Below, piece after piece: positions 16,834 to 64,000 of a DNA stretch of 64,000 nucleotides (positions are counted from its first letter, which is position 1; every line of letters starts with the position of its first letter). The stretch lies in contig CM069143.1 of assembly GCA_035221665.1 (NCBI GenBank), positions 46,748,001 through 46,812,000 of the forward strand. Reading direction: 5' to 3'. The translations under genes and the position numbers were made by a program. Origin of the DNA: Okamejei kenojei. Its lineage: Eukaryota. The notes under the pieces are model-generated. The model saw only the letters and a program-made list of their open reading frames with translations, was not told where the DNA came from and ran no database searches.

Positions 16834-16939
16834 CTGGAAGATAGAAGAAAATGTACTTTTAAATGCCACAAAATTATATTTTGGTTTGTAACAAGCATTT
16901 TGTACCTACCTCATTTTGTATGCTTGCTCCAACATTTTC

Positions 16940-17872: not shown

Positions 17873-18514
17873 CTAATTTTGTTCAGATGACCAGTTCCCA
17901 TAGCGAACAAGTTGTACATGGCGTTACAGATGAACATCAATAGTTCAAAAGTGTTTATTTCTCAGAAACACCGGACAGGAACTGGAACAATGAAATTCTT
18001 ACTTGCTGCAGCTTTACAGGCACATCAGGTTCAATAACAAAAATAAATATGCAATAAATAATCAGTTGATCCACATACCATATGAATTAGGAGGAGCACG
18101 CATATAGCCTCTGCTGTTCAATATGGTTGTGACTGAACCGATTGTAAGCAACTTTTCAGCCTTGCCCACTACCCACCTCTTAGCCACAGTGTATCACGAA
18201 TGTAGCTACTTCTGCCTTAAAAATCTCCCAGATCTCTGCTTTCACTGGCCATTGAGTTCCAAAGAGTTATTTCCCTCAGAGAAAACGGAATCAGCTGCGT
18301 TTTAAATGGACAACTCTTTATTACCATTCCTTCACTTAAAAAGGTGTGATTTAAGAATGTGTCCTATAACACCAGTAACTCTTTGGGACATTTATCATTG
18401 ATTTACAAAGATGTTTTTCGCCATATGAAAGCACAAGATTACAATGTACAAAATGTTGTACAAAAAATTGATTTAACCCTCCTTTTCAATGTACAAAATT
18501 TTGCTTAACAAGAA

Positions 18515-18820
18515 GCGGCATGGTGGCGCAGCGCTAGAGTTGCTGCCTTACAGCACCAGGGACCCGGGTTCGATTCTGACTACAGGTACGTGTCTGTACG
18601 GAATTGGTACGTTCTCCCTGTGATCTGCGTGGATTTTCTCCGGGATCTCCGGTTTCCCCCCACACTCCAATGACGTACAGGTTTGTAGGTTAATTGGCTT
18701 GGTATAATTGTAAATTGTCCCTAGTGTGTGTAAGATAGTGTTAATATGCGGGGATTGCCGGTTGGCGCGGACTCGGTGGGCTGAAGGACCTGTTTCCGCG
18801 CTGTATCTCTAAAGTCTAAA
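18515..18820 (+). mobile_element. tRNA-derived V-SINE (HE1-like), full length
   Basis: A box tggcgcagcgctag, B box ggttcgattc, V-domain ttctccctgtgatctgcgtggattttctccggg..ctccggtttcccccca, and CR1-like tail gaaggacctgtttccgcgctgtatctctaaa. Confidence 0.9.
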
Positions 18821-21105: not shown

Positions 21106-21237
21106 CTGGAGTCATATCCCGAATGCCACGACAGACTTAAAGACCCTGATGAATAGGGCATCATAGTAGCCTCAGGTTGCGTCTCCGATAACTTGGCCAG
21201 GTGCCATGTGTAAGGTCTTATCCCTGGGCCACTTCTC
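21106..21237 (-). CDS. SHROOM4: SHROOM4 coding exon (132 nt, about exon 3 equivalent): RSGPGIRPYTWHLAKLSETQPEATMMPYSSGSLSLSWHSGYDS(S)
   Basis: ttctttcttttag|G...CCAG|gtgag. Phase 2 at both ends, matching the large exon (AG+T = Ser). Resembles the recalled post-PDZ motif RPHSWHVAKL...FSLSWHSG. Confidence 0.93.
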
Positions 21238-21329
21238 CTAAAAGAAAGAAAAGGCATAAATGTAAGTTGTAGCTACGAGATAATGGAACAGTCAATAGTA
21301 TTTGTAGACCTATCTGCTTATAAAACAAT

Positions 21330-21642: not shown

Positions 21643-22389
21643 ATTACTCATTAAAGTAAATTACTGTGAACAATTCGAGGCATTCTAAAAACAAGAAAGA
21701 TGCTTTATTAATGGAAACACATTCTGTTTACCAAGTGTTGTATGTAACAGAAGCTAGATTACACTAAACAGGCAACAAGTATTTTGATAATATCTACACA
21801 TTTTAAAGTTACATTCAAAATGTATTAATGCTGTTTTTTTTAAACTAACTTTTTAGTCCACTGCAATTTTAACACCTTCCCAAAAACCCCATCGCAACTG
21901 AAAATTCTCTGAATGCTCTGGGCACTTCTTTGACACATCACCCAGATTAATTATTCATGTGCAATTTTATGACTGTTCTAGAATTTAAAGCAATGGACCT
22001 CAACTTTTCATCAATAGTCACTGGACTGAGTGTTGGAGAAAGGAACCCAAGTGGTTTTGCCTCTCCCTCTCCAATGTCTACTGAAGTTAATTGTCCCATA
22101 CAAAAGAGCCGAATAGGACTTTCACTGAGATCATGCAACTTTAAGATCCTCATAACTCTGTACCATATGCGACACCACATTTATTCAATGAATCGTGAAT
22201 AGGGCTCGTTTTCGCAATGTTTTATATATACACAGGCCTTCAGTTCAAAATCTCCTTGACAAACAAAGAAAATTTGTTACATATCTGTGTCAGCTAAAAG
22301 AGACTGTGAAAAATTAGATTGTCAAACTTATATTATTTGGAAGCACAGAATAATGAATGTCTGACCAGGATAGATTTTCTGGAGTGTGT

Positions 22390-22518
22390 AGGAAGGAATT
22401 GCAGATGCTGGTTTAAACTGAAGATGGACACAAAATGCTGGAGTAACTCAGCGGGACACGCAGCATCTCTGGGGAAAAGGAATGGGGGACGTTTCGGATC
22501 GAGACCCTTCATCAGGCC
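22390..22518 (-). mobile_element. Penelope-derived element with an intact minimal hammerhead core (22488-22515)
   Basis: Minus strand reads CTGATGA-A-GGGTC-TC-GATCC-GAAAC-GTC, followed by the family arm ...gctgagttactccagcattttgtgtcc...gcatctgcaattccttcc. Confidence 0.75.
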
Positions 22519-25399
22519 ACTACAGTTTTCTGGAGTGATGTTTCTAGTCTAACAAGAAATGCTAGATTGATTCTAAGGAATAGGATGCATCAAGCACACC
22601 AAGTCACGGTAGAGGAACACTTGGTAGATAATGGTCATAACATCACAAGATTTAGGTTAGCTCTAGAAAAAGAAAAGCACTATTTGGAGGAAGGACAGTT
22701 TCAAAAGGACAAGAGTGGATCTGACCCAGGCCAACTGGAACCAGTAATTGACCAGCAAAACAGTAGCAAAGAAATGGATTGCCTTGAAAGAAGGGTGTTC
22801 GTATACAATTGATACGTAGTCCTGCGAGGAGCAAAGGAACAACAAACAAATCCAGAGTTTGTTGGGTGATCAAAGAGATACAGAGGTAAATAAAGCAAAA
22901 CAAAAGCCTACTTATAACAAGTGTTAACTTTTAAATACCAGTGGCAACCAAACTAATTATAAAAGAATTGGAGTGGAAGTGAATGTTAACAGAGGCAAAG
23001 GATGCATATTAGAAAACATTAAAAGATTAGCTAAGACAAATGGGAACCCGAAGTGTTCTATTGGCTTACAAATAATAAAGTGTGCAATAATGACTAAATA
23101 TCAAACATGTATTTTCCATTTGATGTTTCCATTAAATGTACTTCCAAATTAGTAATGAAGGAGGACATAATTGAGACAGATAATTTACAATTTACAGCGT
23201 TAAGGCATTTGAAGAATTGGCTGAACATCCAAAGGCAAAGAAGTTTGTGTTCTTGAAGATAAATGTAAACAAGTAAAGGAGGTGATGCTTACAAGTTGTT
23301 ATTGAGCTCGGCAGCACACATGTCAAAAAGCTTCAAAGTTATTTATTGCAACAATCACAAGCCATTAAAAACAGGTTAAATGTTGTATGTACATTACTTT
23401 GAAAAATACATTTCACGATTTTAAAGAATCTACAATCAATTCTGATATTTATTGTAAAATACAGTTCTAATGTTTCCTCCATGCTTAAAGCTTGTAATCC
23501 AAGGAACCAAAGTTGAGACATCTGTACAAAGCAGCATAAAACATGGCGAGAATGGATGGGGAGAATGATGGAGAGAATTGCTGGGCCAGATATTGCAAAT
23601 AAACTGGATTGTTAATTTCTATTTATGCCTCAGGGCAGGTTTTACCCACGTTTCAGCAGCCACTCAGGAACCAGTTTTAAGCATTCCTCTACATAAAAGC
23701 TTTTCCTATATCTTCTATTGATTGCGATCATCATCTTTGCTCAGAAAACAGCATTAAATGTCAATAACCTGAACTTTGTTTTGGTTCCACTGTGTCCTTT
23801 GGTTTTACACTATTATGGTCTGGTTACCTGGTATGATAGATTATTCATTCATTGTATTACTAATTATTGTACTAATTAGTTTGTGTGTTATTACATTAAC
23901 AGGACTGTGAAGCTGTATCAAGTAAGAATTTCATTGCGCTGTGATCAATATATATATGACAATTAAACACACTTGACTCTCATCTCCAAGACCTTCACTT
24001 CCTTTGTAAAGTAGGAGAAATAGAATTGCAGCCTATCCAGTTTTTAAAAAATGTTCATCACTTCCATAGTGCTCCATTTCTCTTACTTATACTGAACTAA
24101 ATGCTTTCTCAAAAAAGCCTGTCACTTCCAAAGGTTATATGCAGCCACAGCAAAAATTAAGGAATATATATTTGATTCTCCTCTGCCAGATTTTGGAAGA
24201 ACTGTGCCCATGCACATCCAAAACATGTTTTCATTGCTTATTGGATGTAGTAATATCTGCAAGAGTCTTTGTATTCCAATGGCAGAACAATAGATCCTTA
24301 TTCATATGCAATGATCCCACAGTTAGCGAAGTAAAGACGATTGTTATATTATCAGTATTGTTAGTTATACTGGAGATATTATCATCTGCTCAGGTTAACC
24401 CTATTATTTCCCAATATAACATTTCTCAATCCTATCATCAGGCCTCATTTAAAATTGAAATTGTTTAACGGAACAGTAAAAAAAAAACATAATGTGCAAC
24501 AGTAATATGTTATTTTAAGACAAAACCTTGGAAGAATATCTCACTCTAAGCTGGGGAAAGAATTGTGTGAGTTTGGAAGTTCTATGTTAATGTAAAGCTT
24601 AAGAAAACAGTGCAGTTTTCTGGCCTCTTTCAAGCTTTACGCACAGGATATTTCAGCTGCCCAACTCAAACTATTTCCTGCAATTCTCCTATCCATAAAA
24701 AGAAGAAACACATTGTTTTTTTTGTGATCAATGTTGAAATAGCAGCATAACAAGAATTCTTAAACTCCCTCAGGGAGTGTGCACGAAAACATTTGCCCTG
24801 CAGTTTACATTTGGGACAGATTGCACTGATTTAATCAGTGTTATTTGTCGATCGTTTAACTGTTATGAAGAACAAAAAATGACATCGTATTTTCCCCGCT
24901 ATTCCCAAGAACATCCAATCTTACTTTTCCTTGGTAATTTTCTCATTGCCTGTAAGGTTTCAACTCCATTCTGACTTATGGCACCAACTTGTTGTTCATC
25001 GAGACAAAAAGAGCTTCTTCCATTTAGCCTTTCAGGACCCTTTCATAGGTAACTGGGACAGGAGGTGGGAATTAAGTTGGGAGAGAGGATGAATAGGCCA
25101 AGATTTTAACTACTCAAGCTACAATGTGGCACTATCCTTTTTATGGTGCATTGGGGTCACTAAATCAAGAGAATCAACTGGACTCAGTTTGGGGCTGTCA
25201 GCATTCACAGGCCCAAGGCCAAGTTAAAGCAGCTTCAGGAGTACAGGAATGATAAAAATAGATACAAAATCATTTGACGCAAAATTATTAATCATGTTTC
25301 CCACTATTTCTCCCACCACCCCAGTTATTCTGATGCTTTCCTCTCCTCAGTGTGTTCACCTCCAATCTCTGAATACCTTTTTTGCTTTTTATTCCCCCC

Positions 25400-25700
25400 C
25401 CCCCCCCCCTTGTTCCCTGCCCCAATCCCATTCCACCCATATCCCTCTATCTGGCTTTACATTTTATTCCTCTTCTCTTCTTAGCCAACATTCCTTTGCC
25501 TCCTTTTCAATTCTAGACTTTGTCACATTCCATCCATCCGTCAACCACCCCCTCACCTTTATCCTTGCCAGGTTTTGCCTCAGCCCCCCCTCTCTTCTCC
25601 ACCCAACTCCACCAGTCTGAAGGGGAGGCTGACCCACTGAGAACCCCTAGCAATTCCTTTTTTTGCTCAAGACCCCAGCATTTCTAGTTTCTTGTGTCTC
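25400..25700 (+). mobile_element. Degraded Penelope-like 3' region / pseudo-LTR
   Basis: Pyrimidine-rich stretch ending in ccagtctgaagg...gctgacccactgag...cagcatttctagtttcttgtgtctc, the same arm as the hammerhead elements. Confidence 0.5.
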
Positions 25701-39035: not shown

Positions 39036-40363
39036 GGCCTTATTTGACCATCATCTCTACCTTTGTAAGAGAAAAACACTTTCCTTCCATCTCTATAAAT
39101 TACTATACAATTTCCTGCCTCCCCTAGATAACGATTATATTTTTGCATGCCAAGTTCAGACTTTTTCCACAACTCTCTATCTATTGTCTTCCAATTATTA
39201 TTCCACCACAGTACTGAAGATCGTTCCAGGAATTTCTCTCTCTCCAACCTCGAGCTTTCTTTTAAAAAAAGAGCCAAGCATTCAATTAACCACTCCCAAG
39301 CAACTTTAGTTAGACATTCATTCCTTTATCTCTTTGATGTCCATATCATTACCCCTGCACTCCTTGCACCTCACCCCCACCATCCTCGCTCTCACTGGGA
39401 CATTTTCTAAAGAGGCCATATAAATGCACACTTATTAATATGTAGTTTTCTCCCATTACTGATGAATCAGATTAGATGGAAACCAGTCAGACGTTTACCA
39501 TGTTTAGTTCCCAGCCAAAAGATAAATAGCCCACATTATGCTGTTATCATATTCACATCATGCTTTTGGAATTAGATCTTTGGCACTTATTCTATGGCAT
39601 TGATCATGAATGCGACAACGTGTCCAGCACTCGAACAGTAAAATTGCTCAAGTTTGAAGTTAATGGCATTTTACTCATACAAATCCAGTTACCAAATTCA
39701 CCAGTTTGACTTGGGGTATACTCAATTATATTAATAGTTTAATGTACAGAGTGGGGCATGAAAGAGACATTGGACTTGTTAGCATAATTTTTTTTTACAT
39801 TCAGGAAACTAATCATTTATCACAGAGTTGCTTTGGGGAACCTTGCTTTTTGAAATTCAGACTAGTACAAAGACAAATCTTTAGTCAGTGGTTAATGCAG
39901 TTGGTCTTGTGACCTTGACAATTGACACTCATGATGACAAAGACAGACGCCAATGTAGTACAGTAAGACTTGGTGTTAAACAAAATAGAGCAGCCGAGTT
40001 TTAAACATGTGGAGTAGAAAAGACAATAAGCTGAAGGTTAATGGTGGGTTGGGGTAGGCAATAAGGAAACCAAAATGTGCCGTGGCTGGGTGAAATAAAG
40101 AAAAAGCTGAGGGAATGGCTAGGTTTAAGCCTATTATTGTCATATGTACTGAGGTACAGTGAAAAGCTTTGTTTTGCTTACTAACCAATCAAATAATACA
40201 TAAATACAATCAACCCAAACCCAAGTACAATTGGCAGTGAAGGAAAATATACAAAGTGCAGCATATAGTTTGCAGAGCCATCTGATGAAATTACCCTTTT
40301 TTCTCACACTACTTGTCATAATATATTTTTAATTAATTAAAATAATTGATCAAAATTACAATT

Positions 40364-43300
40364 ATAAAATCCTTGGGGGAATCATGATTTCCTCCCAAGC
40401 ATTTTATAATAAAAAGAATCGTAAGGATCAACAAGATTTGGAAAAGGAGATTAAACAATTAGATATACAGAATGCAGCGAAGCCAACTACAATACTACAT
40501 AATAAAATTGCAGCATTGAAATATAAATTAAATAAAATATATACAGATCAAGTTGTTAAACTTTATCAACATACTAAACAATTACAGTTTGAATTCGGTG
40601 ATAAACCTCAAAAATTATTGGCTCGCCAACTAAGGAAAATGGAAGCTGAAAATATAATCCATAGGATTAAATCACATAATGGCGAATTGTTAACACAACC
40701 TAAAGATATTAATGAAAGATTTATGCAATATTATAAAAACTTATACACTGCTAAAATAACAGAAAATAAAATAGGAATAGAAGCATTTAAAAAAAATGTA
40801 ACCTGAAAGGGTTGGATTTACAAAATAGAGAGTTACTGAATGCTGATATTTCGATAAATGAAATCCAAGAATCAATCAGATCATTAAAAAACGGTAAAAC
40901 ACCGGGACCTGATGGCATTGGCTCGGAATTTTATAAAATATTCTATGATCAGATTGTACCACGTCTGAAATCATTATATGAACATATATATACACAGCAA
41001 AAACTACCAGAAACATTAAATTAATCTACTATAAGTTTTACCTAAAATAAACAAAGACTTGGATGAACCAGGGTCATTTAGAGCAATAGTTCTTTTAAAT
41101 ACTGATCAAAAGATATTAACTAAAATATTAGCACAAAGGTTAAGCTCAGTTGTTAATAAATTAATTCATCCCGATCAAACAGGATTTATACCAAAACGAT
41201 ACTCTTCATATAATTTGAGACGGTTATTTAATATTATATACTCGAAAAGAGGTATTAATAAAGATCTAGTAGTTATTTCGTTAGATGCAGAGAAAGCCTT
41301 CAATCAAGTGGAATGGCCTTATTTGTTCTCGGTTATGGAAGCTTTCAAACTGGGAGAAAAGTTTATTACCTGGATCAAATTGCTATATACAAATCCGACA
41401 GCTAGAATAATAACAAATCGAATGTTATCACCTAAATTCAATCTATCTCGACAAGGTTGCCCTTTATCCCCTTTACTGTTTGCACTGGCAATAGAACCCC
41501 TAGCTCAGAGGATGAGATCACATCCGGAAATACATGGATATATATTTATCGACCAGAGAAGGGGTTGTGCTGGACCTCCTGTTAGGAAATGAGGCAGGTC
41601 AGGTGACGGAGGTATGCGTTGGTGAGCACTTCGGGACCAGCGATCACAATACCATTAGTTTCAATATAATTATGGAGAGAGTCAGAACTGGACCTAGGGT
41701 GGAGATTTTTGATTGGAGAAAGGCTAACTTTGAGGGAATGCGTAAGGACTTTAAAGGAGTGAATTGGGACACTTTGTTTCATGGGAAGGATGTAGAAGAG
41801 AAATGGAGGACATTTAAAAGGGGAAATTGTAAGAGTACAGAATCTTTATGTCCCTGTTAGGTTGAAAAGGAAATAGTAAAAATTGGAAAGAGCCATGGTT
41901 TTCAAGGGAAATTGGACACTTGTTTCGAAAAAAGAGAGATATCTAGAATAATTATAGGAGGCATGGAGTAAATGAGGTGCTAAGAGTATAAAGAATGTAA
42001 AAAGAATCTTAAGAAAGAAATTAGGTAAGGCTAAAAGAAGATATGAGGTTGCTTTGGCAAGAAAGGTGAAAGTAACCCAAAGGGTTTCTACAGCTATACT
42101 AATAGCAAAAGGATAACGAGGGATAAAATTGGACCATTAGAGAACCAGAATGGACAGCTATCTGCAGAGCCAAAAGAGATGGGGGGGAGATATTGAACAA
42201 TTTCTTTTCTTCGGTATTCACCTAGGAGAAGGATATTGAACTCGGTGAGTTAAGGGGAAAAAGTAGAGTAGCTATGGAAACTATGAGAGCCAAAGAGGAG
42301 GAAGTACTGACACTTTTGAAAAAATAAAAGTGGATAAGTCTCCAGGTCCTGACAGGATATTCCCAAGGACATTGAGGGAAGTTAGTGTAGAAATAGCAGG
42401 AGCTATGACAAATATTCAAATGTCCATTAGAAACGGGAATAGTGCCGGAGGATTGGCGTACTGCGCATGTTGTTCCATTGTTTAAAAAAGGGTTCAAAGA
42501 ATAAACCTAGCAAATTATAGACCTATTAGTTTGACGTCAGTGGTGGGCAAATTAATGGAAAGGATACTTAGAATAATATATATAAAGCTCATCTGGATAA
42601 ACAGGGTCTGATCAGGAACAGTCAACATGGATTTGTGCCTGGAAGGTCATGTTTGACAAACTTCTTGAATTTTTTTTGAAGCGGTAACTAGGGAAATTTG
42701 ATGAGGGTAAAGCAGTGGATGTTGTCTATATGGATTTCAGTAAGGCCTTTGACAAGTTCCCCATGGAAGGTTGGTTAAGAAGGTTCAATCTTTGGGTGTT
42801 AATGGCGGAGTAGCAAGATGGATTCAACAGTGGCTGAATGGGAGATGTCAGAGAGTAATGGTGGATGGCTGTTTGTCAGGTTGGAAGCCGGTGACCAGTG
42901 GGGTGCCTCAGGGATCTGTGTTGGGGTCCACTGTTGTTTGTCATGTACATCAATGATCTGGATGATGGGGTGGAAAATGGATAAGTAAGTATGCAGATGA
43001 TAGGTGGTGTTGTGATAATGAAGTAGATTTTCAAAGTCTACAGAGAGATTTGGGCATTTGGAAAAGTGGGCTGAAAGATGGCAGATGGAGTTTAATGCTG
43101 ATAAGTGTGAAGTCTACATCTTGGCAGGACAAATCAAAATAGGACGTACATGGTAAATGGTAGGGAATTGAGGAATGCTGTGGAACAGAGGGATCTAGGA
43201 ATAACTGTGCATAGTTTCCCTGAAGGTGGTAATCGCATGTAGATAAGGTGGTAAAGAAAGCCTTTGGTGTGCTGGCCTTTATAAATCAGAGCCATTGAAT

Positions 43301-45990
43301 ATAGGAGTAGGGAAGTAATGTTAAAATTGTACAAGGCATTGGTAAGACCAATTCTGGAGTATGGTGTACAATTTTGGTCGCCTAGTTATAGGAAGGATGT
43401 CAACAAAATAGAGAGAGTACAGAGGAGATTTACTAGAATCTTGCCAGGGTTCCAGCAACTATGTTACAGAGAGAAAGGTTGAACAAGTTAGGTCTTTATT
43501 CTTTGGAGCGCAGAAGATTAAGGGGGGACTTGATTGAGGTCTTTAAAATGATGAAAGGGATAGACAGAGTTGACGTGGATACGTTTTTCCCATTGAGGGT
43601 AGGGAAGATTCAAACAAGAGGGCATGACATGAGAATTAAGGGACAGAAGTTTCGGGGTAACGTGAGGGGGAACTTCTGTACTCAGAGGGTGGTGGCTGTG
43701 TGGAATTAGCTTCCAGCAGAAGTGGTGGAGGCAGGATCGATTTTAACATTTAAGAGTAAAGTTTATAGGTATATGTACGTGAAGGGAATGGAGGGGTATG
43801 GTCTGAGTGCAGGTAGATGGGACTAGGGGAAAACACGGACTGGAAGGGCCGAGAGGGTCTGTTTCCGTGCTGTAATTGTTATATGGTTATATGGATACGA
43901 TCCTAGAGACACTAAAAATAAAATTTCTTTATATGCGGATGATGTATTACTTTACATCACAAAACCAGAAACCAATATTTGAAATTTGTTAAAATTAATA
44001 ACTGAATTTGGATCCTACTCAGGATATAGTATCAATTGGAATAAAAGTGAACTTATGCCAATAACGGTAAATAACTTACACATATTACAACAATTCCCTT
44101 TTAAGATAACAAATGAAAAAATTAAATATCTTGGAATTTTCGTAACAAAAAGATTTGACATTATTTTTAAATCTAATTTCCCACCATTATTGAATAAATT
44201 AAATAAGAATATCTTATATTGGAAAACTTTACCTATTTCAATGTTAGGTAAAATTAATATAATAAAATTGTTTTTTCTTCCACAATTATTATTACCTTTT
44301 TCCAATTAAATTCCGATATATCTCCCTAAAAATGTATTTAAAAAGGTGACTCCCTAGTCACTAACTTCATTTGGGATATAAGAGCCATAGAATAAATAAA
44401 AAACATTTATGTAAATCAAAAATAAATGGAGGTCTAGCACTACCAAATTTTATGTTTTATTATTGGGCAGTCAACATTAAAAATATGAATTTTTGGTTAG
44501 AAGAAATAGATAACCAACCAACTTGGTTAAATTTATGGAAAAAAAAGAAGATTGTTCTCCTTTTGAAATTAGTTCTATAATATTTGCTAATATTAATCTA
44601 GCTAAGAGAAAACTTATAGTGAAAACTATGATAATAAGAAAGTGGAATACGTATTTGGGAAAACAAATAAAGAAAACATTTTAAAACTAAAATCTATACC
44701 ACTATCTCTTAGCATTGTAAAATAAATGTTACGTTTAAACCTTCAATGATGGATAAAAGCTTTTTTACAATGGAAAAATAATGGAAAATTTTATTAAGGT
44801 CGGAAGATCTCTATGAGGAAAACTCCTTCCTTTCATTTCAAGATCTACAACAAAATTATGGACTACACTCTAAGGATTATTTTAGATATTTACAAAATTA
44901 GAGATTATGTTAAAGCAAATACGCAGGAACTCAAAATAGAAAAGACAGAAATTGTAGATAAATGCTTAAATAAACATCCAAATACAGAAAAAATGATTTT
45001 TCATATATATATATATATATATAAAACATGTTATTGAAGGTGATGTTCGATCACAGAAAATACATAGACAATCTTAGGAAAATGATTTATGCCAAATTAT
45101 TAGACCAAGAAGTATGGGATAAAGTTTACAACATATACACCATTGTTCGCTAAATGCTAAACACTCATCTTAGTACAGTTTAAAATACTACATACTTACT
45201 TAGACTTAGACTTACTTATTCAAAAGAATCTAAATTACATAACATTTTTGCCAAAGTATCTCTTATATGTGATTAACATGTCCAACATTTAGAAGCCAAC
45301 TTGTCACACTCATTTACAAACTGTATAAAAAATACAAAATTCTGGATAGAAATATTTAGGATAATTTCGAATGTTGTTAATATAATTTTGACACCCGATT
45401 CAAAGTTAATAATACTAGGAATACTGGAAACAGACCAATTAATAACAATGAATCAAAGAATTTTTATTGATTATGGGTTAGGTTTTTTTGATAATTGGGG
45501 AAAAATTAATATTACAATTTTGGAAAGGCCCTACATCCCCTACAATCAAAATGTGGAATACAGAAATGTCGGAGACTCTTCATCTGGAGAGATTGAGGCT
45601 TGTCCTAATGGACGGGTTTGATCTCTTCAGAGGGATATGGTCTCCATATATTGAATATTTACAGTCATAATGGCTCGGTACGAGGGCTTGACTGAGGCTG
45701 AATATTAGAATGGATGAAGAAATATATATAATAAATCATGCCTATATCTCCAATGACGGATTAATGATTAACACTCCATTCGCTTTCATATTTTCTTCAT
45801 TATTTATCTCTATCTTTTCCTACTTTATAAAAAAAATTTAAAAAGCGTATAGAAGCATATAGTCTTAAATTTTAATATTAATAATATCAATATTATTAAT
45901 ATCATGAAAGTATATAATGATGTATTTTCATTTATGTAAAACATTGTAATTTTCATAAATATGTTTCTATAATAAAAAATATTTAACATA
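40364..45990 (+). mobile_element. 5'-truncated L1-clade LINE (second subfamily) with 12-bp TSD, split by a CR1 insertion
   Basis: ORF2 pieces 40384-41540 (FGDKPQKLLARQL, KTPGPDG, SLDAEKAF, RQGCPLSPLLF). Resumes at 43891 (GYD..TKNKISLYADD) and runs to 45670. AATAAA at about 45971. TSD AAAATTACAATT at 40352-40363 and 45991-46002. Confidence 0.92.
41541..43890 (+). mobile_element. 5'-truncated CR1 LINE nested in the L1
   Basis: EN C-terminus (LDLLLGNE...GTSDHN), KSPGPD, NYRPISLTS, QHGF, DFSKAFD, SGVPQGSVLG, YADD, and RRRLRGDLIEVFK...TRGH. Tail (gttatatg)n. ATGGATA is present at both junctions. Confidence 0.92.
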
Positions 45991-47294: not shown

Positions 47295-47704
47295 CATAGA
47301 AACATAGAAACATAGAAACATAGAAATTAGGTGCAGGAGTAGGCCATTCAGCCCTTCGAGCCTGCACCGCCATTCAATATGATCATGGCTGATCATCCAA
47401 CTCAGTATCCCGTACCTGCCTTCTCTCCATACCCTCTGATCCCCTTAGCCACAAGGGCCACATCCAACTCACTCTTAAATATAGCCAATGAACTGGCCTC
47501 AACTACCCTCTGTGGCAGAGAGTTCCAGAGACTCACCACTCTCTGTGTGAAAAAAGTCTTTCTCATCTCGGTCTTAAAGGATTTCCCCCTTATCCTTAAG
47601 CTGTGACCCCTTGTCCTGGACTTCCCCAACATCGGGAACAATCTTCCTGCATCTAGCCTGTCCAACCCCTTAAGAATTTTGTAAGTTTCTATAAGATCCC
47701 CTCT
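47295..47704 (-). mobile_element. CR1 3' end, young, with (CATAGAAA)n tail
   Basis: ORF 47402-47665 DRLDAGRLFPMLGKSRTRGH...; tail repeats at 47295-47326. Confidence 0.92.
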
Positions 47705-49334: not shown

Positions 49335-50096
49335 TCAAATTATCTAAATGGTGGCCGATTAGGAAAAGGGGAGATGCAGCAAGACCTGGGTGTCATGGTA
49401 TACCAGTTATTGAAAGTAGGCATGCATGTGCAGCAGGCAGTGAAGAAAGCGAATGGTATGTTAGCTTTCATAGCAAAAGGATTTGAGTATAGGAGAGGGA
49501 GGTTCTACTTCAGTTGTATAGGGTCTTGGTGAGACCACACCTGGAGTATTGCGTACAGTTCTAGTCTCCAAATCTGAGAAAGGACATTATTGCCATAGAG
49601 GGAGTGCAGAGAAGGTTCACCTGGGATGTCAGGACTGTCTTATGAAGAAAGACTGGATAGACTCGGTTTATACTCTCTAGAATATAGGCGATTGAGAGGG
49701 GATCTTATAGAAACTTACAAAATTCTTAAGGGGTTGGACAGGCTAGATGCAGGAAGATTGTTCCCGATGTTGGGGAAGTCCAGGACAAGGGGTCACAGCT
49801 TAAGGATAAAGGGGAAATCCTTTAAGACCGAGATGAGAAAGACTTTTTTCACACAGAGAGTGGTGAGTCTCTGGAACTCTCTGCCACAGAGGGTAGTTGA
49901 GGCCAGTTCATTGGCTATATGTAAGAATGAGTTAGATGTGGCCCTTGTGGCTAAGGGGATCAGGGGGTATGGAGAGAAGGCAGGTGCGGGATACTGAGTT
50001 GGATGATCAGCCATGATCATACTGAATGGCAGTGCAGGCTCGAAGGGCCGAATGGCCTACTCCTACACCTAATTTTTATGTTTCTATGTTTCTATG
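49335..50096 (+). mobile_element. CR1 3' portion, young, with (TTTCTATG)n tail
   Basis: ORFs 49305-49532 and 49626-49997 (LSYEERLDRLGLYSLE.RRLRGDLIE...). Confidence 0.92.
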
Positions 50097-50654
50097 TAAC
50101 TGCTGTGTACCAGCCCGACGCAGCATACCCAAAGAGCTCAAGCCAGATGTCTGCCAGCTTTACAAACCCAGTATCACAGTGATCACTACGTTCACTGACT
50201 GAGCTATTGGGAAAGCTGAGCTTTTCAGTTCTGATGTTTGCAAGCATTGGATAAAAGATGCAAAGAGACACGGATTATTTTAATTGACCAAAATATCAGC
50301 GAATACAAATTGGAAAGTTGTCCTGGCTACAGGCAAGATGTTTCCATGGAGAAACTGCAAAGTACCATATAAGCTCCTGTGTAAGAGACATTCACCGCTG
50401 TCAGCTTTCATCAAACAATTCAATTGGTTATCTGGCATGTCCACTTTGTTCAAACAGCCAAGTCTAAACTGGCAGCAAAGAATTGTATATACTGTAAACT
50501 ATTACATTGGAGTTTCTGTTCAAGTTCGAAATACTGTTGTCATGTTTTCCCTGTTCTAATTTGCAGGGGTAATCCCATCTATCCTGGGGTCATGTTGGAG
50601 TAGATGCTTTCCAATGGCAAGTCTTTGATGAGGTTGATTTCATGAGTAAACACA

Positions 50655-51082: not shown

Positions 51083-53860
51083 ATGGAAAAGAAAATGGAG
51101 AAATCTCAAAGAAAGATTTCGCGGGTTAAAAGATCATCCCGGGGTGAAGCTAAAAATACGGGACAAGAGATTAGTGCGAATCCGGTTCCGATACCGGTGG
51201 CCGCTGATTCACCCGTTAGTGAGATTATAATTTCTCCAGAAATACTAGCCACGGAGGGAAATGTTCCTAAAAAATGTAAAAAGAAATCCGTGAGGCCCGT
51301 GGTTTCTGATAATGACTCTGACAATGAAAGTCCTCCGGATAATAAAGCTATGTGGCTAAAAATGGAACATATGGAGAAAGTACTCCAAAATATTATGAGA
51401 CAAGGGTCACAGTACCCAGAAGTTTCCCAAAAAGACCCTGAGGGGCTTGAATATACAGAATATGGCTATGTGCCAAATTGGGAATTTGAAACTCCGGACC
51501 CAGGATTTAGGGCGGAGGAAGTCTCATTGGATATAATTCCAAGTGGATCAGGGCTGCAAAAGACAGACCCTGCAAGTGGTGATGTGGATTATGAATGCAC
51601 ACCACAAATAAAAAAGAAAAGGCCAGATGTGCCTGGGATAGCAAAGGATTTTGCTATACCTGAAGGAAGTGGTGAGGCTATGGAAGAAAACCTAGCTGCC
51701 AACATTAATTATATGGTATCTCACCAACTTCAAGATTCTGTGATGATTGAAACAGCAGAATTATATAAAACACCGGATAATTGTGCCTCATTGGAGGTAC
51801 CTACGGTTAATCCATCTATATGGACATCTATGACCCCAAGCATGAGAGGACAAGAAATGAGATTTCAAAGAATCCTCAAATTAATTTCTGCTGCCATTAC
51901 TGCATATGGAAGACAAATGGAGGGGTTGGAGATGGATAAAATTCAAAAAGATACTTTGGGCTTATTATGCAATTCCTTCTATGAAATTAATTGTATGAGA
52001 AAAATTGCGATTCGGCCCATATTTCATCCAAGGTTTGCAAGTCTGTGTCGAGCAAGTGGTGTTCAAGCTCCTGGTTATCTATTTGGAGAAAACCTCCATA
52101 AACAAATAAAAGATATGGATGAAGAAGCTAAATCTATTAGCCACATGAGACCTTTCGTCTTTGGACAAAAAAGGTATTTTTCGCCAAGAAGGCGATTTGA
52201 TTTTGGAAACAGAGGCAGGAATATGACAAGGAAATATTATCATCCGACACAGCCTAATGTTTACCCGTATACAGGGAGAAGGAGACCAACACGTTCATAT
52301 GGAGAGGTACAAAAGATTTATTCTATGTTTAAAGAAACTGTGGACAAATCTCCAGTTGGAGGGAGATTACAAATGTTTTATGATGAATGGCTTACCATCA
52401 CATCTGATCGGTTTATTTTACAAACAGTTTCAGGAGCTACTATTACATTTAAAGAAGGTGTTAACTCTCCAGTACAAAATAAACCTGCTTATGCTTTCGT
52501 GTTTTCTGCAAAGGAAAAGGCAGAAATAAATGGGGAAATTGACAAATTGCTTAAAAAAGGTGTTATTGAAAAAACTGTTGAACACGAGCATCAATGTGTG
52601 TCAAATATATTTCCAAGAGATAAAAAAGATGGTGGTTGCAGAATTATTCTGGACCTTACAAATCTTAATAAATTTGTCGAATACAAACATTTTAAAATGG
52701 AAACGTTTAATACTGTAAGACATTTGATATCAGCAGGTTGTTATATGGCTACAATTGGTTTAAAGGACACTTATTATTCTGTATCAATACATCAGTTCTT
52801 TCAAAGGTATTTAAAATTTAATTGGCTGGGACAGCTGTGGCAATTCAGAGCTTTACCAAATGGGTTAAGTTCAGCTCCCAGGCTCTTTACAAAGCTGTTG
52901 AAACCAGTTTTAGCACAATTAAGAGCACAAAAACACATCGTTATGGCTTATCTCGATGACATTTTAATCATCAATGACAATCAGGAATCAGCTGGAAAAT
53001 CAGTTTCAGCAACTAAAGCTTTATTTGAAAAGTTAGGGTTCTTGATCCATCCAATTAAGTCCCAGTCAATTAACTATTTGGGGTTTGTAATTAACTCCGT
53101 TACTATGTTAGTAATTTTACCAACAGATAAGATTGATGATATTTTGGTGACTTGTAGGGGTCTCATTCACAAACTTTATCCCTCCATCCGAGAAGTAGCA
53201 AAGATTATTGGTAAGCTAGTAGCAGCATTTCCTGCAGTGGAATTTGGTCCATTACATTACCAAAACCTTCAAAGGGACAAAATAAGAGCTCTAAAAAAGA
53301 GAGCAGGCCACTTTGATAGGCCTATGCAATTAACAAAAGAAGCTTTATTGGAATTACAATGGTGGATTGAAAATGTCCCACAAGCTGCTAGAAACATTCT
53401 GATACAACAGCCTGAAGTGATTTTACAAACGGATGCTAGCGCTCTCGGATGGGGGGCAACAGATTCATTCTCCAGTTGTGGAGGTAGATGGACTGTCCAA
53501 GAGGAAATGTTTCTCCAAACATATGGTATTAACTATTTAGAATTGTTGGGTGCTTTTTATGGACTGAAGGCATATTGTTCTACAAAAAAGAATCTACATG
53601 TACTAATACAATTAGACAATAAAACAGCTGTTGCATATATTAATCACATGGGCGGAGTCAGATCGGTATCATGTGATTGTCTGGTCAATCAGATATGGCA
53701 ATGGTGTATTAACCACCAAATTTGGATCTCGGCAAACTACATTCCAGGTAAAGACAATGTGGTGGCAGATAATAGATCAAGGATATTTAAAGATAACACA
53801 GAATGGATGCTGAACCCAGTAATTTTCAGTAAAATTGTGACTCGATATGGGTTACTGTAA
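51083..53860 (+). CDS. DIRS Gag-like region in frame with RT-RNaseH (925 aa)
   Basis: Gag-like P.NC..L.VP.VN..IW and LFGENL. RT GGRL..F...W..IT.D, KKDGGCRIILDL..LN, HFKMET, F.ALPNGLSSAPR.FTK, YLDD. RNaseH QTDAS..GWG, INYLEL, DNKTAVAYIN.MGG, IPGKDNVVAD. Confidence 0.9.
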   Translation: MEKKMEKSQRKISRVKRSSRGEAKNTGQEISANPVPIPVAADSPVSEIIISPEILATEGNVPKKCKKKSVRPVVSDNDSDNESPPDNKAMWLKMEHMEKVLQNIMRQGSQYPEVSQKDPEGLEYTEYGYVPNWEFETPDPGFRAEEVSLDIIPSGSGLQKTDPASGDVDYECTPQIKKKRPDVPGIAKDFAIPEGSGEAMEENLAANINYMVSHQLQDSVMIETAELYKTPDNCASLEVPTVNPSIWTSMTPSMRGQEMRFQRILKLISAAITAYGRQMEGLEMDKIQKDTLGLLCNSFYEINCMRKIAIRPIFHPRFASLCRASGVQAPGYLFGENLHKQIKDMDEEAKSISHMRPFVFGQKRYFSPRRRFDFGNRGRNMTRKYYHPTQPNVYPYTGRRRPTRSYGEVQKIYSMFKETVDKSPVGGRLQMFYDEWLTITSDRFILQTVSGATITFKEGVNSPVQNKPAYAFVFSAKEKAEINGEIDKLLKKGVIEKTVEHEHQCVSNIFPRDKKDGGCRIILDLTNLNKFVEYKHFKMETFNTVRHLISAGCYMATIGLKDTYYSVSIHQFFQRYLKFNWLGQLWQFRALPNGLSSAPRLFTKLLKPVLAQLRAQKHIVMAYLDDILIINDNQESAGKSVSATKALFEKLGFLIHPIKSQSINYLGFVINSVTMLVILPTDKIDDILVTCRGLIHKLYPSIREVAKIIGKLVAAFPAVEFGPLHYQNLQRDKIRALKKRAGHFDRPMQLTKEALLELQWWIENVPQAARNILIQQPEVILQTDASALGWGATDSFSSCGGRWTVQEEMFLQTYGINYLELLGAFYGLKAYCSTKKNLHVLIQLDNKTAVAYINHMGGVRSVSCDCLVNQIWQWCINHQIWISANYIPGKDNVVADNRSRIFKDNTEWMLNPVIFSKIVTRYGLL

Positions 53861-53896
53861 AATTGTGACTCGATATGGGTAAAATTGTGACTCGAT

Positions 53897-54252
53897 ATGG
53901 ATCTGTTCGCATCAAGACTAAATCATCAGTTGCCTAAATATGTGTCTTGGGAACCAGACCCAGACGCAGTAGCAGTAGATGCTTTTTCATTACACTGGGG
54001 GAATATGTTCTTTTATGCTTTTCCACCATTTGCTCTGGTTCAGCAATGTCTGAAGAAAATAGGACAAGATTCTGCCACAGGATTGTTGGTAATCCCAAAT
54101 TGGCCGACACAACCTTGGTCCCATTGATGTTAAACATGATTAAAGAACCATATATGTCAATTCCTAACAGCAGTGATTTATTGATAAAACCAGTAACCAA
54201 AGAAATTCATCCATTACATGCTTATATGAATTTGTTAATCTGCAGGTTTTGA
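53897..54252 (+). pseudogene. DIRS N6-adenine methyltransferase-like domain, disrupted
   Basis: DLFASRLN...VDAF...W....YAFPPF...PNWPTQPW. Frameshift near 54120 into PLMLNM...HPL...LLICRF. Confidence 0.85.
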
Positions 54253-54290
54253 CCAGACCACTACAGGAGCTTGGATTGTCGGATAGAACT

Positions 54291-55218
54291 ATGGATGTTA
54301 TAGCCGCATCATGGCGAGATAGCACACAAAGACAATATATGACACATATAAAGAAATGGGAAGGATTTTGCAGACCGTGAAATATATCTTATCATACTGT
54401 GAACATTGCAAACGTATTGGAGTTCCTTGCCGAATTGCATTTTGAACAACACTTAAGTTACAGTGCCATTAATAGTGCACGTAGTGCCTTATCATCTTAT
54501 TTAGGACAAATATCTGACCAGAAATCAATTGGATCACATCCATTAATATCCAGATTTATGAAAGGAATCTTTAACAAAAACCCGCCAAAACCAAGATATA
54601 CAGAGATTTGGGATGTTAGCATTGTACTTACTTTACTTAGGCAATGGACTCCAATCGAAGGTTTGTCATTGGAAAGATTAACATTCAAATTAGTAATGTT
54701 AATGTCATTGGTTTCAGCTCAAAGGGTGCAAACATTACAAATGTTGCGTTTAGACTGTATGCATGTGACTACAGATAACATTGTGTTCTATGTTTACGAT
54801 CTGATCAAACAAAGCAGACCAGGAAGAACTGGAGCAAAGGTAACCTTTCAAACTTATCCTATTGATCCAACATTGTGTGTAGTTAGACATTTGAACCAAT
54901 ATATAAAAATTACCAAAACTCTTCGAGGTAATGAAAAAACATTAATGATTACGCATAAGAAACCACACACAAAAGCTTCAGTACAAACAATCTCAAGGTG
55001 GTTAAAACGTGTTACTTTTAGCAGGAGTAGACACTGATGTGTTCAAATCTCACTCCACCAGGGCAGCAGCTACATCCGCAGCGAAGGTGCGGGACGTACC
55101 GCTCGAGCATATTTTAGAAACCGCAGGGTGGAGTAAAGAAATAACTTTTTCAAAGTTCTACAATAAACCTGTTCACACAATGACAGGCTTTGGACACACG
55201 GTGTTGGGTTCACTATAG
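54291..55218 (+). pseudogene. DIRS tyrosine recombinase with a premature stop and a frameshift
   Basis: MDVIAASWRDSTQRQY...; in-frame TGA at 54378. Catalytic residues in SAQR, KQSRPG, HSTR, AGW and F.KFY. Frameshift at about 55010. Confidence 0.9.
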
Positions 55219-56044
55219 TCACCTGCTTTGTTTCACTATTGATTAACATGATCAATTATGTTATCACTTATATCTTTTATCACTTTGTAATGGTTCCCTC
55301 GGGTATAAAGAGGGTTATTATATGTTCTTTTATCATTAAAAAATTTATTATGGAAAGAACTAAAACTAGTCTGGTTTTCTCATGTATGTGTTGACCTAGC
55401 CGGACTGTCGTATAGAAGAATTCTACGACATGAAAAACACAGAAAGCTTCAAACTCTTCACGTAGTCACTCACGTGACTCCGAAGTAAAATAGTAAGATT
55501 AAACGAGAACTTACCTGTTCGAAGTTTGATATTTTATGAGGAGTAACGATGAGGGATTTCGTGCCCTCCACTCAACACCCTCATAAAATGAATGATCACC
55601 TGGTAGTTCTAAAATCTATAATGAGCCTTACTATCTTACTCCGGCTATTGTGTTCTGTGTTTTTCATGCCGCTGCTTTGAAATATGCCGTTCCAGCGCCA
55701 GGCGGGCCTTCTTCACGTAATCCCTCATCGTTACTCCTCATAAAATAAAGATCAAACTTCGAACAGGTAAGTTCTCGTTTAATCTTACTATCTTACTGCC
55801 CCATATCCCTGATGTCAAAACCGCTTACACTAAATACATTCTTTGCCATCTACATTCTGCAAAGGAAAATACAGCCTCATACTTGTGCAATTTGAGCTTC
55901 GCCCCTGTTGGTCACAGTCATGCTCATATACTAAGGGAGATGTCCTTGGCAACTTCTTCACAAGAGCACCTGGTTGTTGCTCTGGGGTCTCTATAGCCCC
56001 CATGCATACTTCTCCTCCAGGCACTAGTTTTTCACCAAAAATAG

Positions 56045-56713: not shown

Positions 56714-57028
56714 GGGGCGGCGGTACAATGGCGCAGCGGTAGAGTTGCTGCCTTACCAGCTCTAGATGCCGGGGTTCGATCCTGACTACAGGTACTGTCT
56801 ATACAGAGTTTGTACATTCTCCCATGACCGTGTGGGTTTTCTCCAGGTGCTCCAGTTTCCTCCCACATCTCCTAAGATGTACAATTTTGTGGGTTAATTG
56901 GCTTCGGTACAAATTGTAAATTGTCCCTAATGTGTGTGTAGGATAGTGTTAGTGTATGGGGATTGCTGGTTAGTGCAGACTCAGTGGGCCAAAGGGCCTG
57001 TTCCACGCTGTGTCTCTGAACTAAACTC
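56714..57028 (+). mobile_element. V-SINE (HE1-like), full length
   Basis: A box tggcgcagcggtag, B box ggttcgatcc, V-domain, and tail aagggcctgttccacgctgtgtctctgaactaaac. Confidence 0.9.
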
Positions 57029-60785: not shown

Positions 60786-62259
60786 TCATGTAAATGCATA
60801 CTACCCGAATTGCTTTTACTGCATGGATAATAACTTTATATCTGAATACTGCTGAATGACATCCAGGAATCTCATCTATTTAAACAGTGCTAAAGAACAT
60901 CAGCATTTTTCCAATGAAATGAAAACATTTCCAAGAAACCATTGGGGGCAGGAAAGAAGTGAAGAATCGAGTGGCTAGGGAGGAGAGGTGGAGAAAGGAG
61001 GGGGTAAAAAAAGGTAACGGAAACACTTTGTCACAAGCTCGTTATTAATAAGCAATTACAAACTGCCAGGCCGACTTTGAACCAAAGCCACTATTTCATC
61101 TGATTTTTAATGTATATATTTTTAAAATTGTTTCAATTCTATTCCCAAGCATTACATAATAATAGGATTTACAGCATAAAACTGGCCATTTGGCCCAACC
61201 AGCCCATGTTAAGGCTTTGCTACACTTCATCTTCCTCCTGCCTTTCCTCACCTAAATTAAAGATTTCAAGTTCTGGCCTCTTGAAGCAGAGTTTAAAGCC
61301 AAGCATGCCTTGTGCTTACAATCTTCCAAAACCCAATTGCATTTTGTGGAACTTCAAAGTGAAGCTGGCAGTTTGTTTGAATCAAGTTGTATTAAAGAGG
61401 TAAAGATCCAATTTTGTTTCAATCTTAGTGGGATGACAGGCTAAGAGTGAAAACACATCTGCCATAAGATTATGGTCCATATTAAAAAACAACAAAAAAT
61501 GGAATCTTAGTTTGGAACACAGCTCTGATGTCAAATCTTCCAGATGTGTCCATAGAAGATAAATAAAGCACTCTTTCCAGATTTTGAACTCTAACAACAA
61601 CTTGCATTTACATAGCACCTTAAAATAGCAACATTTCAACACGGCTTCACAGATACACGAACAAGTAAAAAAAGTTCAAGTCACATATCACGATATTAAG
61701 AGGGGAGTCCCAAAAGTGTGGTCAAAGAGGATAGACTCAAGGTCAATCTTACAGAAGGAAAGAGAGGCATAGAGGTGGAAATATTGAGGTAGATTAAGAT
61801 GCCATTGTGGAATGATTACATTTGGGGATTAGCAAGAGAACAGAATTAAAGTTTCACTGATATTATTGAGGGTTTCACGGCTGGATGCTGCCAATGCTAA
61901 AATTGAAGTGCACTTAACTTGGAATTAGTGCATGACAGCAAATAATGGGCTGACAGGTGAATGAACTTGAAGTTAAATAAAAAACTTGAGCTGAGCTTTG
62001 TTTCAGATTAGTTTATTGTCATATACAGCAAAGTCCAGTGAAATTCCTTGCTTGCATGAAGCTCATGGAATAAACTGTACATGCGCAATAATAGATATGA
62101 CATTAATACAACAAATGGGAAACAACTGAATGGTGCAAAGATAGTTGGGCAATGTGCAGTAACAGACCATAGTGCAATGTTTGGTTGTTGTGTTAATGCA
62201 CTATGGTGTGTTACTGCACAATGCACAACAATCTTTGCTCCATTCTGCTGTTTCCCATT

Positions 62260-62540
62260 TGGGCTGCACGGTGGCGCAGCAGTAGAGTTGCAGCCTTACT
62301 GCACCAGAGACCTGGGTTCTGTATGCAGTTTGTGCATTCTCGTCGTGACCGCGTGGGTTTTCCCTGGGTGCTCTGGTTTTCTCCCAAACTCCAAATATGT
62401 ATAGGTTTGTAGGTTAATTGGCTTTGGTAAAAATGGTAAATTGTCCCTAATGTGTGGGATGGTTCTAGTGTACTGGGATCGCTGACAGACATGGACTTGG
62501 TGGGCCAAAGGGCTTGTTTCCGCACTGTCTCTCTCAACTA
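62260..62540 (+). mobile_element. V-SINE (HE1-like)
   Basis: ggtggcgcagcagtagag..., V-domain, and tail aagggcttgtttccgcactgtctctctc. Confidence 0.85.
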
Positions 62541-62545
62541 ACCCG

Positions 62546-62643
62546 AATCTGAGGAAGGGTCTCGACCCAAAACCTCACCCATTCCTTCTCTCCAGAGATG
62601 CTACCTGTCCCGCTGAGTTACTCCAGCTTTTTGTGCCTATCTT
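62546..62643 (+). mobile_element. Penelope-derived element with a mutated hammerhead core, abutting the SINE tail
   Basis: CTGAGGA-agggtctcgaccc-aaaacctcacccattccttctctccagagatgct... Confidence 0.7.
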
Positions 62644-62649
62644 AAGTTT

Positions 62650-63000
62650 AAAGAGGTTGGGCATGTCACCAAACTTCTACAGATGCACAGTGGAAAGTAT
62701 CCTGACAGCTTACATCACGGCCTGGTATGGCAAGTCCAATGTACAAGAATGCCAGAGACTCTGTGGGTGGTGCACCCGGCCTGGTTCATCATGGGCACAG
62801 CCCTCCCCACTATAGAAAGCATCTGCTGGAGGCGCAGTCTCAAGAAGGCAGCATCTGTCATTAAGAATCCCCCACCATCCGGGCAATGCCCTCTTCTTGC
62901 TGCAAGTGGTACAGAAGCCCGAGGTCCCACACCAACTGCTTCAGGAACTGCTATTCTCAGACAACAATCAGATCTTGAACCAACCTGCACAATCTTAACC
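62650..63000 (+). mobile_element. Rex1/Babar-type LINE 3' fragment
   Basis: NFYRCTVESILTAYITAWYG and LPTIESI..RRSLKKAASVIK.P. Confidence 0.8.
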
Positions 63001-63503
63001 CGACCTCAGCAATGGAACACCACAGATCACCTCTTGCACTACCACAGACCTGTTTTTTTAGTTATGAATTCTTGTAAAAGTCCAAACTAAGCACAGCACA
63101 GGGTAGATTAGAGCACGTCTTCCAGTTTGCACGTGGCCTCACGCTGGCAATAGAAGAGGGCCCAGGCCAGAAAGGAAATGGGAATGAGATCCTCCAGTTT
63201 GCATGTGGCCTCACCCTGGTAATGGAGGCCCAGGACTGCAAGGTTAGTATGTGAATGGGATTCTCCAGTCTATGTGAGGTCGCACTCTGGCAGTGGAGGA
63301 GGCCAGATTCAGAAAGGTCAGTATTCAGGGCTCTCACTTTTTTTCCCTGTTGCCAGCCGAGCAACCTTGACAGCTTTTTAGGTTGCCAAATGAAAGTTTA
63401 GGTGATCATTTAAGATGGTTTGCACGACATGTGCGATAATGTGCTCGGACAAAGTGCGTTGTTACCAGTCGGAATTATGCTCAATGAAGCATTCACATAT
63501 TAT

Positions 63504-63720
63504 GTTCAAGAAGGAACTGCAGATGCTGGAAAATCGAAGGTAGACAAAAGTGCCGGTGAAACTCAACGGGTGCAGCAGCATCGATGGAGCGAAGGCAATA
63601 GGCAACGTTTCAGGCCGAAACCCATCAGTCTGAAGAAGGGTTTCAGCCCGAAACGTTGCCTATTTCCTTCGCTCCATAGATGCTACCGCATCCGCTGAGT
63701 TTCTCCAGCACTTTTGTCTA
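63504..63720. mobile_element. Penelope-derived foldback element with a hammerhead core (63630-63657) and a 14-bp TSD
   Basis: Inverted arms 63540-63623 and 63638-63720. Core CTGAAGA-A-GGGTT-TC-AGCCC-GAAAC-GTT. TSD CATTCACATATTAT at 63490-63503 and 63721-63734. Confidence 0.85.
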
Positions 63721-64000
63721 CATTCACATATTATTTCTGCTTCAAATAACTCAACATATTCACCAATCAAGACATGATATGACAAGACACAATGACCTGA
63801 AGCAAAATTATATTACAATATCTCAACTCTTTTTACACATTGCAATTAATGCAATTTCAAACAAAAATTCCAAACAAAAATGTGCTTGGATTATTCAGCA
63901 TATGATCAACCTGCGTCAATAAATCCTGGACCCTGGTAACATATATGCTTAACCATGCACACTACAGATTGATGCAAGCATGTTTTCTGTGAAGGACCGA

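Follow-up and report, generated by a model that had tools for sequence, protein, structure and literature searches.

Minimal hammerhead ribozymes (min-HHRs) were reported in 2014 to be mostly single dispersed copies tied to truncated Penelope-like elements (PLEs), although pairs lying on opposite strands 100–700 bp apart were reported as well (PMC4209133). According to the same source, dispersed minimal hammerheads and inverted pLTR remnants occur in thousands of copies in other animals, and the minimal motifs show no activity as monomers and only weak activity as dimers. Insertions of endonuclease-bearing PLEs are typified by an inverted pLTR, a tail of 30–40 bp at one end, and a target-site duplication (TSD) (PMC3846280, PMC8557442, PMC11167929); Pen2/Pen2a of Adineta, for example, show an inverted pLTR, a 31-bp tail, and a TSD of 8–10 bp, with the pLTRs mostly arranged head-to-head (PMC3846280). 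In the case of anole Poseidon, the protein cuts each of the two strands and extends both, has a preference for ATT, and works with uncleaved RNA; its reverse transcription (RT) begins at two internal start sites separated by the tail, mainly 111–118 nt into an ORF that itself begins at helix II (PMC11167929). The steps of Penelope integration past first-strand synthesis are stated in that work to be unvalidated.

The locus described here lies at 63490–63734 of the window, by which we mean the whole 64,000-nucleotide stretch of skate DNA that was analysed, and it is probably one inert insertion made of two head-to-head pLTR pieces of a Penelope-like element, which likely arose by two-nick priming in one event. 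The 217-bp unit is bracketed by a 14-bp TSD that has no strand sense, with its left copy at 63490–63503 and its right copy at 63721–63734. The two copies are identical at 14 of 14 positions, 11 of which are A/T, and include ATT; this 14-mer is found nowhere else in the window, and in 3000 random position pairs 150–350 nt apart (±5 nt), which served as a control, the longest exact repeat was 8 nt. Homology to the repeat family ends at the TSD boundaries, in agreement with the earlier note, which had described a perfect duplication around a unit inserted as one piece. The C at 63721 is compatible with both the element and the TSD.

The two inverted arms noticed earlier are present at 63536–63626 and 63635–63725, where 91 nt are 87% complementary. 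They had been taken as arms of about 80 bp, and that description holds except that it missed their inequality, the left arm being without the first core box and ending in a 36-nt tail. With the C of CUGA as +1, the pLTR-like left arm (63540–63623, minus strand) covers about +9 to +92, beginning at helix II without the CUGANGA box, and continues at its 3′ end into the tail (63504–63539, minus strand; about +93 to +128), so that arm and tail together span about +9 to +128 in the minus-strand sense. The pLTR-like right arm (63630–63720, plus strand) extends from +1 to +91 and stops at the short, tail-less 3′ end of the family. The head-to-head junction (63624–63629, plus strand) is read as a 5′ extension of the right arm, which then covers about −6 to +91, and supplies the 5′ side of helix I, where 2 bp can form; the four bases 5′ of the core in this junction also precede the core in an old relative near 25617. 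The tail has no counterpart in the right arm but is common to the relatives at 22388, 46754, 5302, and 50653. The sequence unique to one arm is thus +93 to +128 on the left and −6 to +8 on the right. Subfamily marks are common to both arms, and an 11-mer spanning the predicted cut site is confined, in the window, to these two arms. The arms differ by 10 substitutions in 84 aligned nucleotides (about 12%), several of them at CpG sites, which fits neutral decay. The TSD copies are nevertheless identical, an outcome with a chance of about 0.14 if arms and duplication aged together; such a value can be tolerated, though it allows for the arms having had different templates.

The right arm contains a minimal type I hammerhead motif (63630–63659, plus strand) composed of CUGAAGA (63630–63636), an extra A (63637), helix II with a tetraloop, GAAA (63650–63653), and, after a C, GUU (63655–63657). 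Cleavage would be expected after 63657, which is followed by the 2-nt 3′ strand of helix I. The location of the core at 63630–63657 and its boxes stand as they had been given, while helix II has 4 bp (GGGU/GCCC, loop UUCA) instead of 5, because a fifth pair would close a 2-nt loop and the smallest hairpin loop has 3 nt. Helix I consists of 2 bp (U-G and G-C) followed by an A-C mismatch. Its third position is G in the relatives at 46756 and 17090, and decay of the CpG type at 63627 is a plausible cause of the short helix I in this copy, CpG decay being a general phenomenon. The assignment of the motif to the minimal type I kind found in Penelope elements was borne out. The motif matches the published minimal consensus, helix I excepted. 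In terms of the published min-HHR descriptor (PMC4209133), the copy has the CUGANGA box with the optional extra base (63630–63637), a helix II within 3–7 bp with a loop within 3–10 nt and G10.1-C11.1, and GAAANNUH with a palindromic 15.2-16.2 (63650–63657), while its 2-bp helix I falls short of the prescribed 3–7 bp. No site in the 64-kb window passes the full descriptor, and no Rfam hammerhead match reaches the gathering threshold over the whole window. At E ≤ 10, Rfam returned no hammerhead for 62000–64000; what it did return, hairpins of a generic miRNA type together with two weak matches to sRNAs, stayed below the respective cut-offs throughout.

The core is not a product of chance: among 60 Markov replicates of the window, none contained a core with helix II and 2 bp or more of helix I, and dropping the requirement for helix I brought the mean to 0.12 per replicate. 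Two complete cores survive in the window, 41 kb apart and on opposite strands. The one at 63630 is the only complete core on the plus strand of the 64 kb, and there is none on the minus strand of the 63490–63734 locus. Several core losses among the window copies hit the CpG next to GAAA. In all seven copies with a full first core box, variation in that box occurs at N7 only, and 92% of the helix II cells are paired across 10 window rows. Over the family pairing as a whole, again in 10 decayed rows, 82.5% of cells are paired, with two-sided changes at 0 of 7 pairs and one-sided changes only at 5, and covariation is not above that of shuffled alignments (290/500); for the family as a whole, the structure is thus weakly supported.

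The repeat to which the arms belong is abundant in the window. An nhmmer profile built from eight window copies recovered 18 segments, including the eight training copies, at 15 loci with E ≤ 1 (16 segments at E < 0.01), and none in the reversed window. Besides 63490–63734, there are thus 14 loci of varied architecture, and the density is roughly one locus per 4–5 kb. Exact TSDs of 10–14 bp flank 4 of the 11 loci tested, namely the foldback at 63490–63734, a foldback at 5298–5522, and solo copies at 3845–3924 and 22387–22525, the three relatives having TSDs of 10, 10, and 12 bp; one further locus has an 8-mer at chance level and six have no TSD. Of the six arm ends of the four TSD-flanked loci, half lie near +128 to +132. 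The other three form a second class at or near the short end: two of them are at +91, and the third is approximate owing to deletions. In both TSD-flanked foldbacks the tail is on exactly one arm. At the other side, 13 segments reach the hammerhead region, and 12 of them begin between about −10 and +11 with no common sequence upstream beyond a few bases, the 5′ ends varying by about 20 nt. Because the ends cluster, the copies are not mere random truncations, a possibility that the earlier note had raised against its own proposal. Ribozyme cleavage was rejected as the origin of these 5′ ends, as none of the 13 segments starts at the hammerhead cut site.

The second foldback (5288–5532 including the TSD) has head-to-head arms and a 10-bp TSD, belongs to an older subfamily, and shows a 7-nt snap-back at its central junction. 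The third (17065–17186) lacks a TSD; its left arm, which is very short, stops just ahead of the hammerhead cut site, and the junction of this foldback resembles a template switch from one helix II repeat to another. The junctions and ends of these two foldbacks are unlike those of 63490–63734, whose own junction occurs once in the 64-kb window; the window thus does not bear out the suggestion that the 217-bp foldback represents a family mobilised in trans. The 80-bp solo stub at 3845–3924 (3835–3934 including flanks) has a 10-bp TSD whose first four bases are those of the TSD at 63490 and which has 3 nt in common with the 3′ end of the element; the stub is 96% identical to the arm at 17100–17183. 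The 139-bp solo stub at 22387–22525 (22375–22537 including flanks) carries the tail and a 12-bp TSD and holds the only other complete core of the window (minus strand, 22515), which has no helix I and is separated from the TSD by 10 unexplained bases. The old relative near 25617 (25390–25690), which was found by eye and missed by nhmmer, is preceded by about 230 nt of pyrimidine-rich sequence ending with CAG just before the first core box. This tract resembles a splice acceptor and may be native upstream sequence; in Drosophila virilis, the end of an intron falls at helix I (PMC4209133). Separately, a tail-less stub (62548–62643) was observed directly behind the 3′ end of a repeat of about 280 bp that we take to be SINE-like (both within 62263–62652), further copies of which lie at 18515–18820 and 56729–57025.

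The distribution of sequence between the two arms is the main argument for two-nick priming: each arm contains sequence that is missing from the other, and neither can therefore be a simple snap-back copy of the other. The enzyme of the element would have made one nick in each target strand, with 14 bases between the two, and each nick would have primed reverse transcription. From the nick after 63503, a cDNA begun at the distal start site would have given the tailed arm; from the nick of the opposite strand at 63721, one begun at the proximal start site would have given the tail-less arm, with the help of a primer–template match of 1 nt (4 of 5). Both cDNAs would have halted at the hammerhead and been joined there, and repair of the stagger would have left the duplication. 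The RNA that served as template was probably uncleaved; in the simplest case, it would have been the 5′ end of an autonomous element's transcript. The hammerhead would thus be a passenger, predicted not to fold in the 217-bp unit, in a copy that is apparently decaying neutrally. The same dead Penelope insertion could instead have arisen by self-priming, in which a cDNA folds back at the palindrome at the edge of the hammerhead and the arms are later made unequal by mutation. The junction is indeed a short palindrome around 63629, a 7-nt snap-back lies at the centre of the 5298–5522 foldback, and self-priming has been proposed for palindromic inverted junctions (PMC3846280); the junction at 63629 can also be read as the centre of a palindrome with a 3-nt deletion, in keeping with that proposal. 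A snap-back copy, however, cannot gain sequence that is absent from its template, and both arms have unique sequence, so that rescuing this alternative requires the 3-nt deletion together with further point changes at the junction. We consider it unlikely.

If two-nick priming is extended from this locus to the family, skate genomes would be densely strewn with Penelope stubs of 90–130 nt that extend from the uncleaved hammerhead at the 5′ end to either of two RT starts at the 3′ end, and the foldbacks would be two-nick, two-template fossils of a dimeric enzyme with TSDs that equal the nick stagger. This generalisation is put forward only tentatively, as a possibility that we hold to be somewhat doubtful. 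In the open-licence literature, we found no published account of a two-nick stub model or of this skate/shark repeat family, nor any description of twin priming in Penelope elements. The tight clustering of the 5′ ends fits both the 5′ end of an autonomous mRNA and a separate short RNA as the template. The latter choice would turn the 90–130-nt stub into a SINE-like, non-autonomous RNA with its 5′ end at the hammerhead, which a Penelope enzyme would mobilise in trans, the foldback being two copies joined in a single event. Such an RNA would account for the 12 of 13 segments that start within about −10 to +11 without common upstream sequence, the exception being the copy near 25617, and for the 80- and 139-bp solo stubs with TSDs of their own. 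Moreover, the pLTR alone was reported to suffice for mobilisation in trans in Adineta (PMC3846280), and pLTR-related retrozyme monomers were described in Xenopus (bioRxiv 10.64898/2026.07.22.740005). The same clustering would, however, result if RT began about 90–130 nt from the 5′ end of an autonomous mRNA and continued to that end, or if it stalled at helix II; the 5′ ends are spread over about 20 nt, and no promoter was evident in a scan that, being a bacterial one, is uninformative here. A SINE-like stub thus seems to us quite unlikely, but clustered 5′ ends and the stub as a possible separate short RNA constitute the defensible part of the earlier idea.

The 217-nt unit folds into one hairpin of −129.2 kcal/mol (z = −17.4; equally stable shuffles, 0 of 200), and forcing the ribozyme fold within the whole unit costs 33.9 kcal/mol relative to this long hairpin. 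The pairing probability of helix II is about 7e-9 both in the whole unit and in the prefix ending 11 nt past the cut site, compared with about 0.5 in the right arm alone. In this model, the antisense arm would be transcribed before the core, which would be buried by pairing; the hammerhead of the insertion is therefore probably inactive, and a single buried cut site is predicted to release no unit. These calculations bear on the description of the foldback as retrozyme-like, according to which it would self-cleave, circularise, and reinsert as a unit. That description draws on the non-coding nature of the unit, its hammerhead core, and its long TSD, metazoan retrozymes having TSDs of more than 4 bp (PMC7229834). 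The unit nevertheless has one core and no tandem (head-to-tail) repetition, with 266 nt visible downstream; the core lacks a same-strand partner in the window, the other complete core being 41 kb away on the opposite strand; helix I has 2 bp, and the predicted burial of helix II, the absence of a second copy of the junction in 64 kb, and the lack of any segment beginning at the cut site all speak against it. We regard the retrozyme-like reading as very improbable and have not retained it.

A long stable hairpin would also be expected of a MITE or foldback DNA transposon or of a microRNA-type hairpin, in which case the hammerhead match would be incidental, and Rfam does give microRNA matches below threshold. 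The inverted repeats are not terminal, however, since the left one begins 32–36 nt inside the TSD (the 36-nt offset on the left side), and relatives exist as solo, non-inverted units with 10- and 12-bp TSDs; from these two facts we conclude that the insertion is not a MITE. The fit of the motif to the published minimal consensus, with a first box that varies only at N7, likewise argues against a coincidental match, and this alternative can hardly be credited. A microRNA precursor was rejected as a candidate because Rfam gave no match at gathering, the best one scoring 48.4 bits against a cut-off of 100.

The coding capacity of the window was surveyed by a Pfam scan of 148 of its 172 ORFs of at least 72 aa, the other 24 lying in or beside Shroom exons or overlapping the ORFs of L1-type, Tc1, and DIRS-type elements. 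None of the 148 ORFs matched a GIY-YIG family, the three RT matches in the window all fall within other elements, and a crude motif scan in all six frames gave nothing convincing, so that no autonomous Penelope ORF could be linked to the repeat. The unit itself was correctly described as non-coding: the two scanned ORFs overlapping it have no Pfam match, and peptide searches produced no usable match. When the 40-residue open frame of the left arm was considered as the start of an ORF, none of four candidates was found at E ≤ 10, and a match of the left-arm frame at E 3.8e-4 was rejected as an unrelated repetitive protein. A blastn search of plasmids gave no match. In a scan of GTDB for stray elasmobranch contigs, the first motif had 0 matches, and the single match of the second was dismissed as chance, as it lies within an apparent coding region of a bacterium, and inspection of the flanks by eye showed no similarity. 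The assignment to Penelope is thus likely on the grounds of motif and architecture, that is, the head-to-head inverted pLTR with a hammerhead, the one-sided tail of 30–40 bp (36 nt here, and likewise in the 5298–5522 foldback), and the 14-bp TSD at an AT-rich site.

As for the genomic setting, a 400-residue piece of a minus-strand ORF (14400–16910) is 97% identical to a Shroom4-like protein of Leucoraja erinacea, 85% identical to that of sawfish, and 63–70% identical to those of sharks, which marks the host as a skate. Shroom4-like exons were located on the minus strand at 1–1278, 2625–2693, 14418–16862, and 21108–21257, one of them with a 48-bp coding tandem repeat, and a portion of the large exon recurs in degenerate form at 17782–17883 as a duplicate. 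Since 21108–21257 encodes residues 87–136 and residues 1–86 are absent from the window, the insertion is probably situated inside a large Shroom4-like intron, the host pre-mRNA reading the minus strand. Three degenerate direct repeats without a hammerhead core are seen at 63118–63297, spaced by 71–72 bp and about 200 bp upstream of the insertion. A separate 150-bp foldback (62112–62261), 79% self-complementary, is unrelated to the Penelope-type repeat. Other mobile elements are two RT fragments presumably of L1/Tx1 type (9444–12463 and 40333–45660), a Tc1-type transposon with 100-bp inverted repeats (12986–14006), and what we take to be a DIRS-like element (51083–55037) with an RT ORF of 925 aa, another ORF downstream of it, and inverted repeats that lie near 50830 and at 55455–55797. 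A 403-bp inverted pair (47302–47704 and 49695–50097, opposite strands) has 97% identity across a distance of 2 kb, and its repeat recurs in the window.

In the arms of the insertion, six of seven transitions give G-U on the minus strand, which is the host sense strand (p = 0.125, two-sided). Selection keeping the hairpin in the host pre-mRNA was considered and set aside, as 10 other inverted pairs lean likewise to minus-strand G-U (34 vs 23) and a general mutation bias is simpler; other copies of the repeat show C>T over G>A at 6:2 on the minus strand. Judged from these counts, the lean likely reflects a strand-biased mutation pattern throughout the window. Transcription-linked mutation bias is a general phenomenon.

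As a single locus, the insertion carries little weight, because dispersed hammerheads and inverted pLTR remnants are already known. Its value is that of a clean specimen, in which two nicks, two start sites, and their join would all be contained within 245 bp with no ORF between them. Given the density of stubs that skates appear to have, judging by this window, a census of them could cheaply test two-nick priming against self-priming. If the stub reading is true, such a census would provide an in vivo readout of the unresolved second-strand step of Penelope integration and would also tell whether a SINE-like stub RNA exists.

The motif resembles published min-HHRs in its CUGANGA box, in the extra base before helix II, and in the G-C at 10.1-11.1, as well as in GAAA-C-G-U-U, where the C-G is palindromic and loop 3 is absent; C G U U or C G U C is found in many of the published rows (PMC4209133). 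It differs in that helix I at 63630 has 2 bp, a length seen among the published rows only in those of Drosophila, Culex, and Oikopleura, and in that the second (left) arm of the skate insertion has lost the first box; the text of Fig. S3 of that source contains no cartilaginous fish row that we could find. With PLE insertions, the skate insertion shares head-to-head pLTRs, a tail of 30–40 nt at one end, a TSD, and an AT-rich target, and also two classes of 3′ end, the distal one about 120–130 nt from the hammerhead (PMC3846280, PMC8557442, PMC11167929). The main RT start of Poseidon, 111–118 nt into its ORF, is close to the +128 end of the skate repeat (PMC11167929). In contrast, the 217-bp unit is without an ORF or internal sequence, and both arms are cut at the hammerhead, while its TSD of 14 bp exceeds the 8–10 bp of Adineta (PMC3846280).

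Non-LTR retrozymes are similar to the insertion in being short, non-coding, pLTR-related, and PLE-dependent and in having a type I hammerhead and a long TSD, but they form head-to-tail arrays with a ribozyme per unit and give circular RNA (PMC7229834; bioRxiv 10.64898/2026.07.22.740005). The skate insertion has one core, inverted arms, and a ribozyme predicted to be buried, and because retrozymes are head-to-tail arrays with a ribozyme in every unit, it is not a non-LTR retrozyme. Two-nick priming also resembles the twin priming of L1, in which both target nicks prime cDNA synthesis and an inversion results inside one TSD. The two cDNAs of L1 copy different parts of one RNA, whereas the arms of the skate insertion are both copies of one 84-nt stretch, begun at two start sites, so that two templates, or two passes over one, would have been needed.
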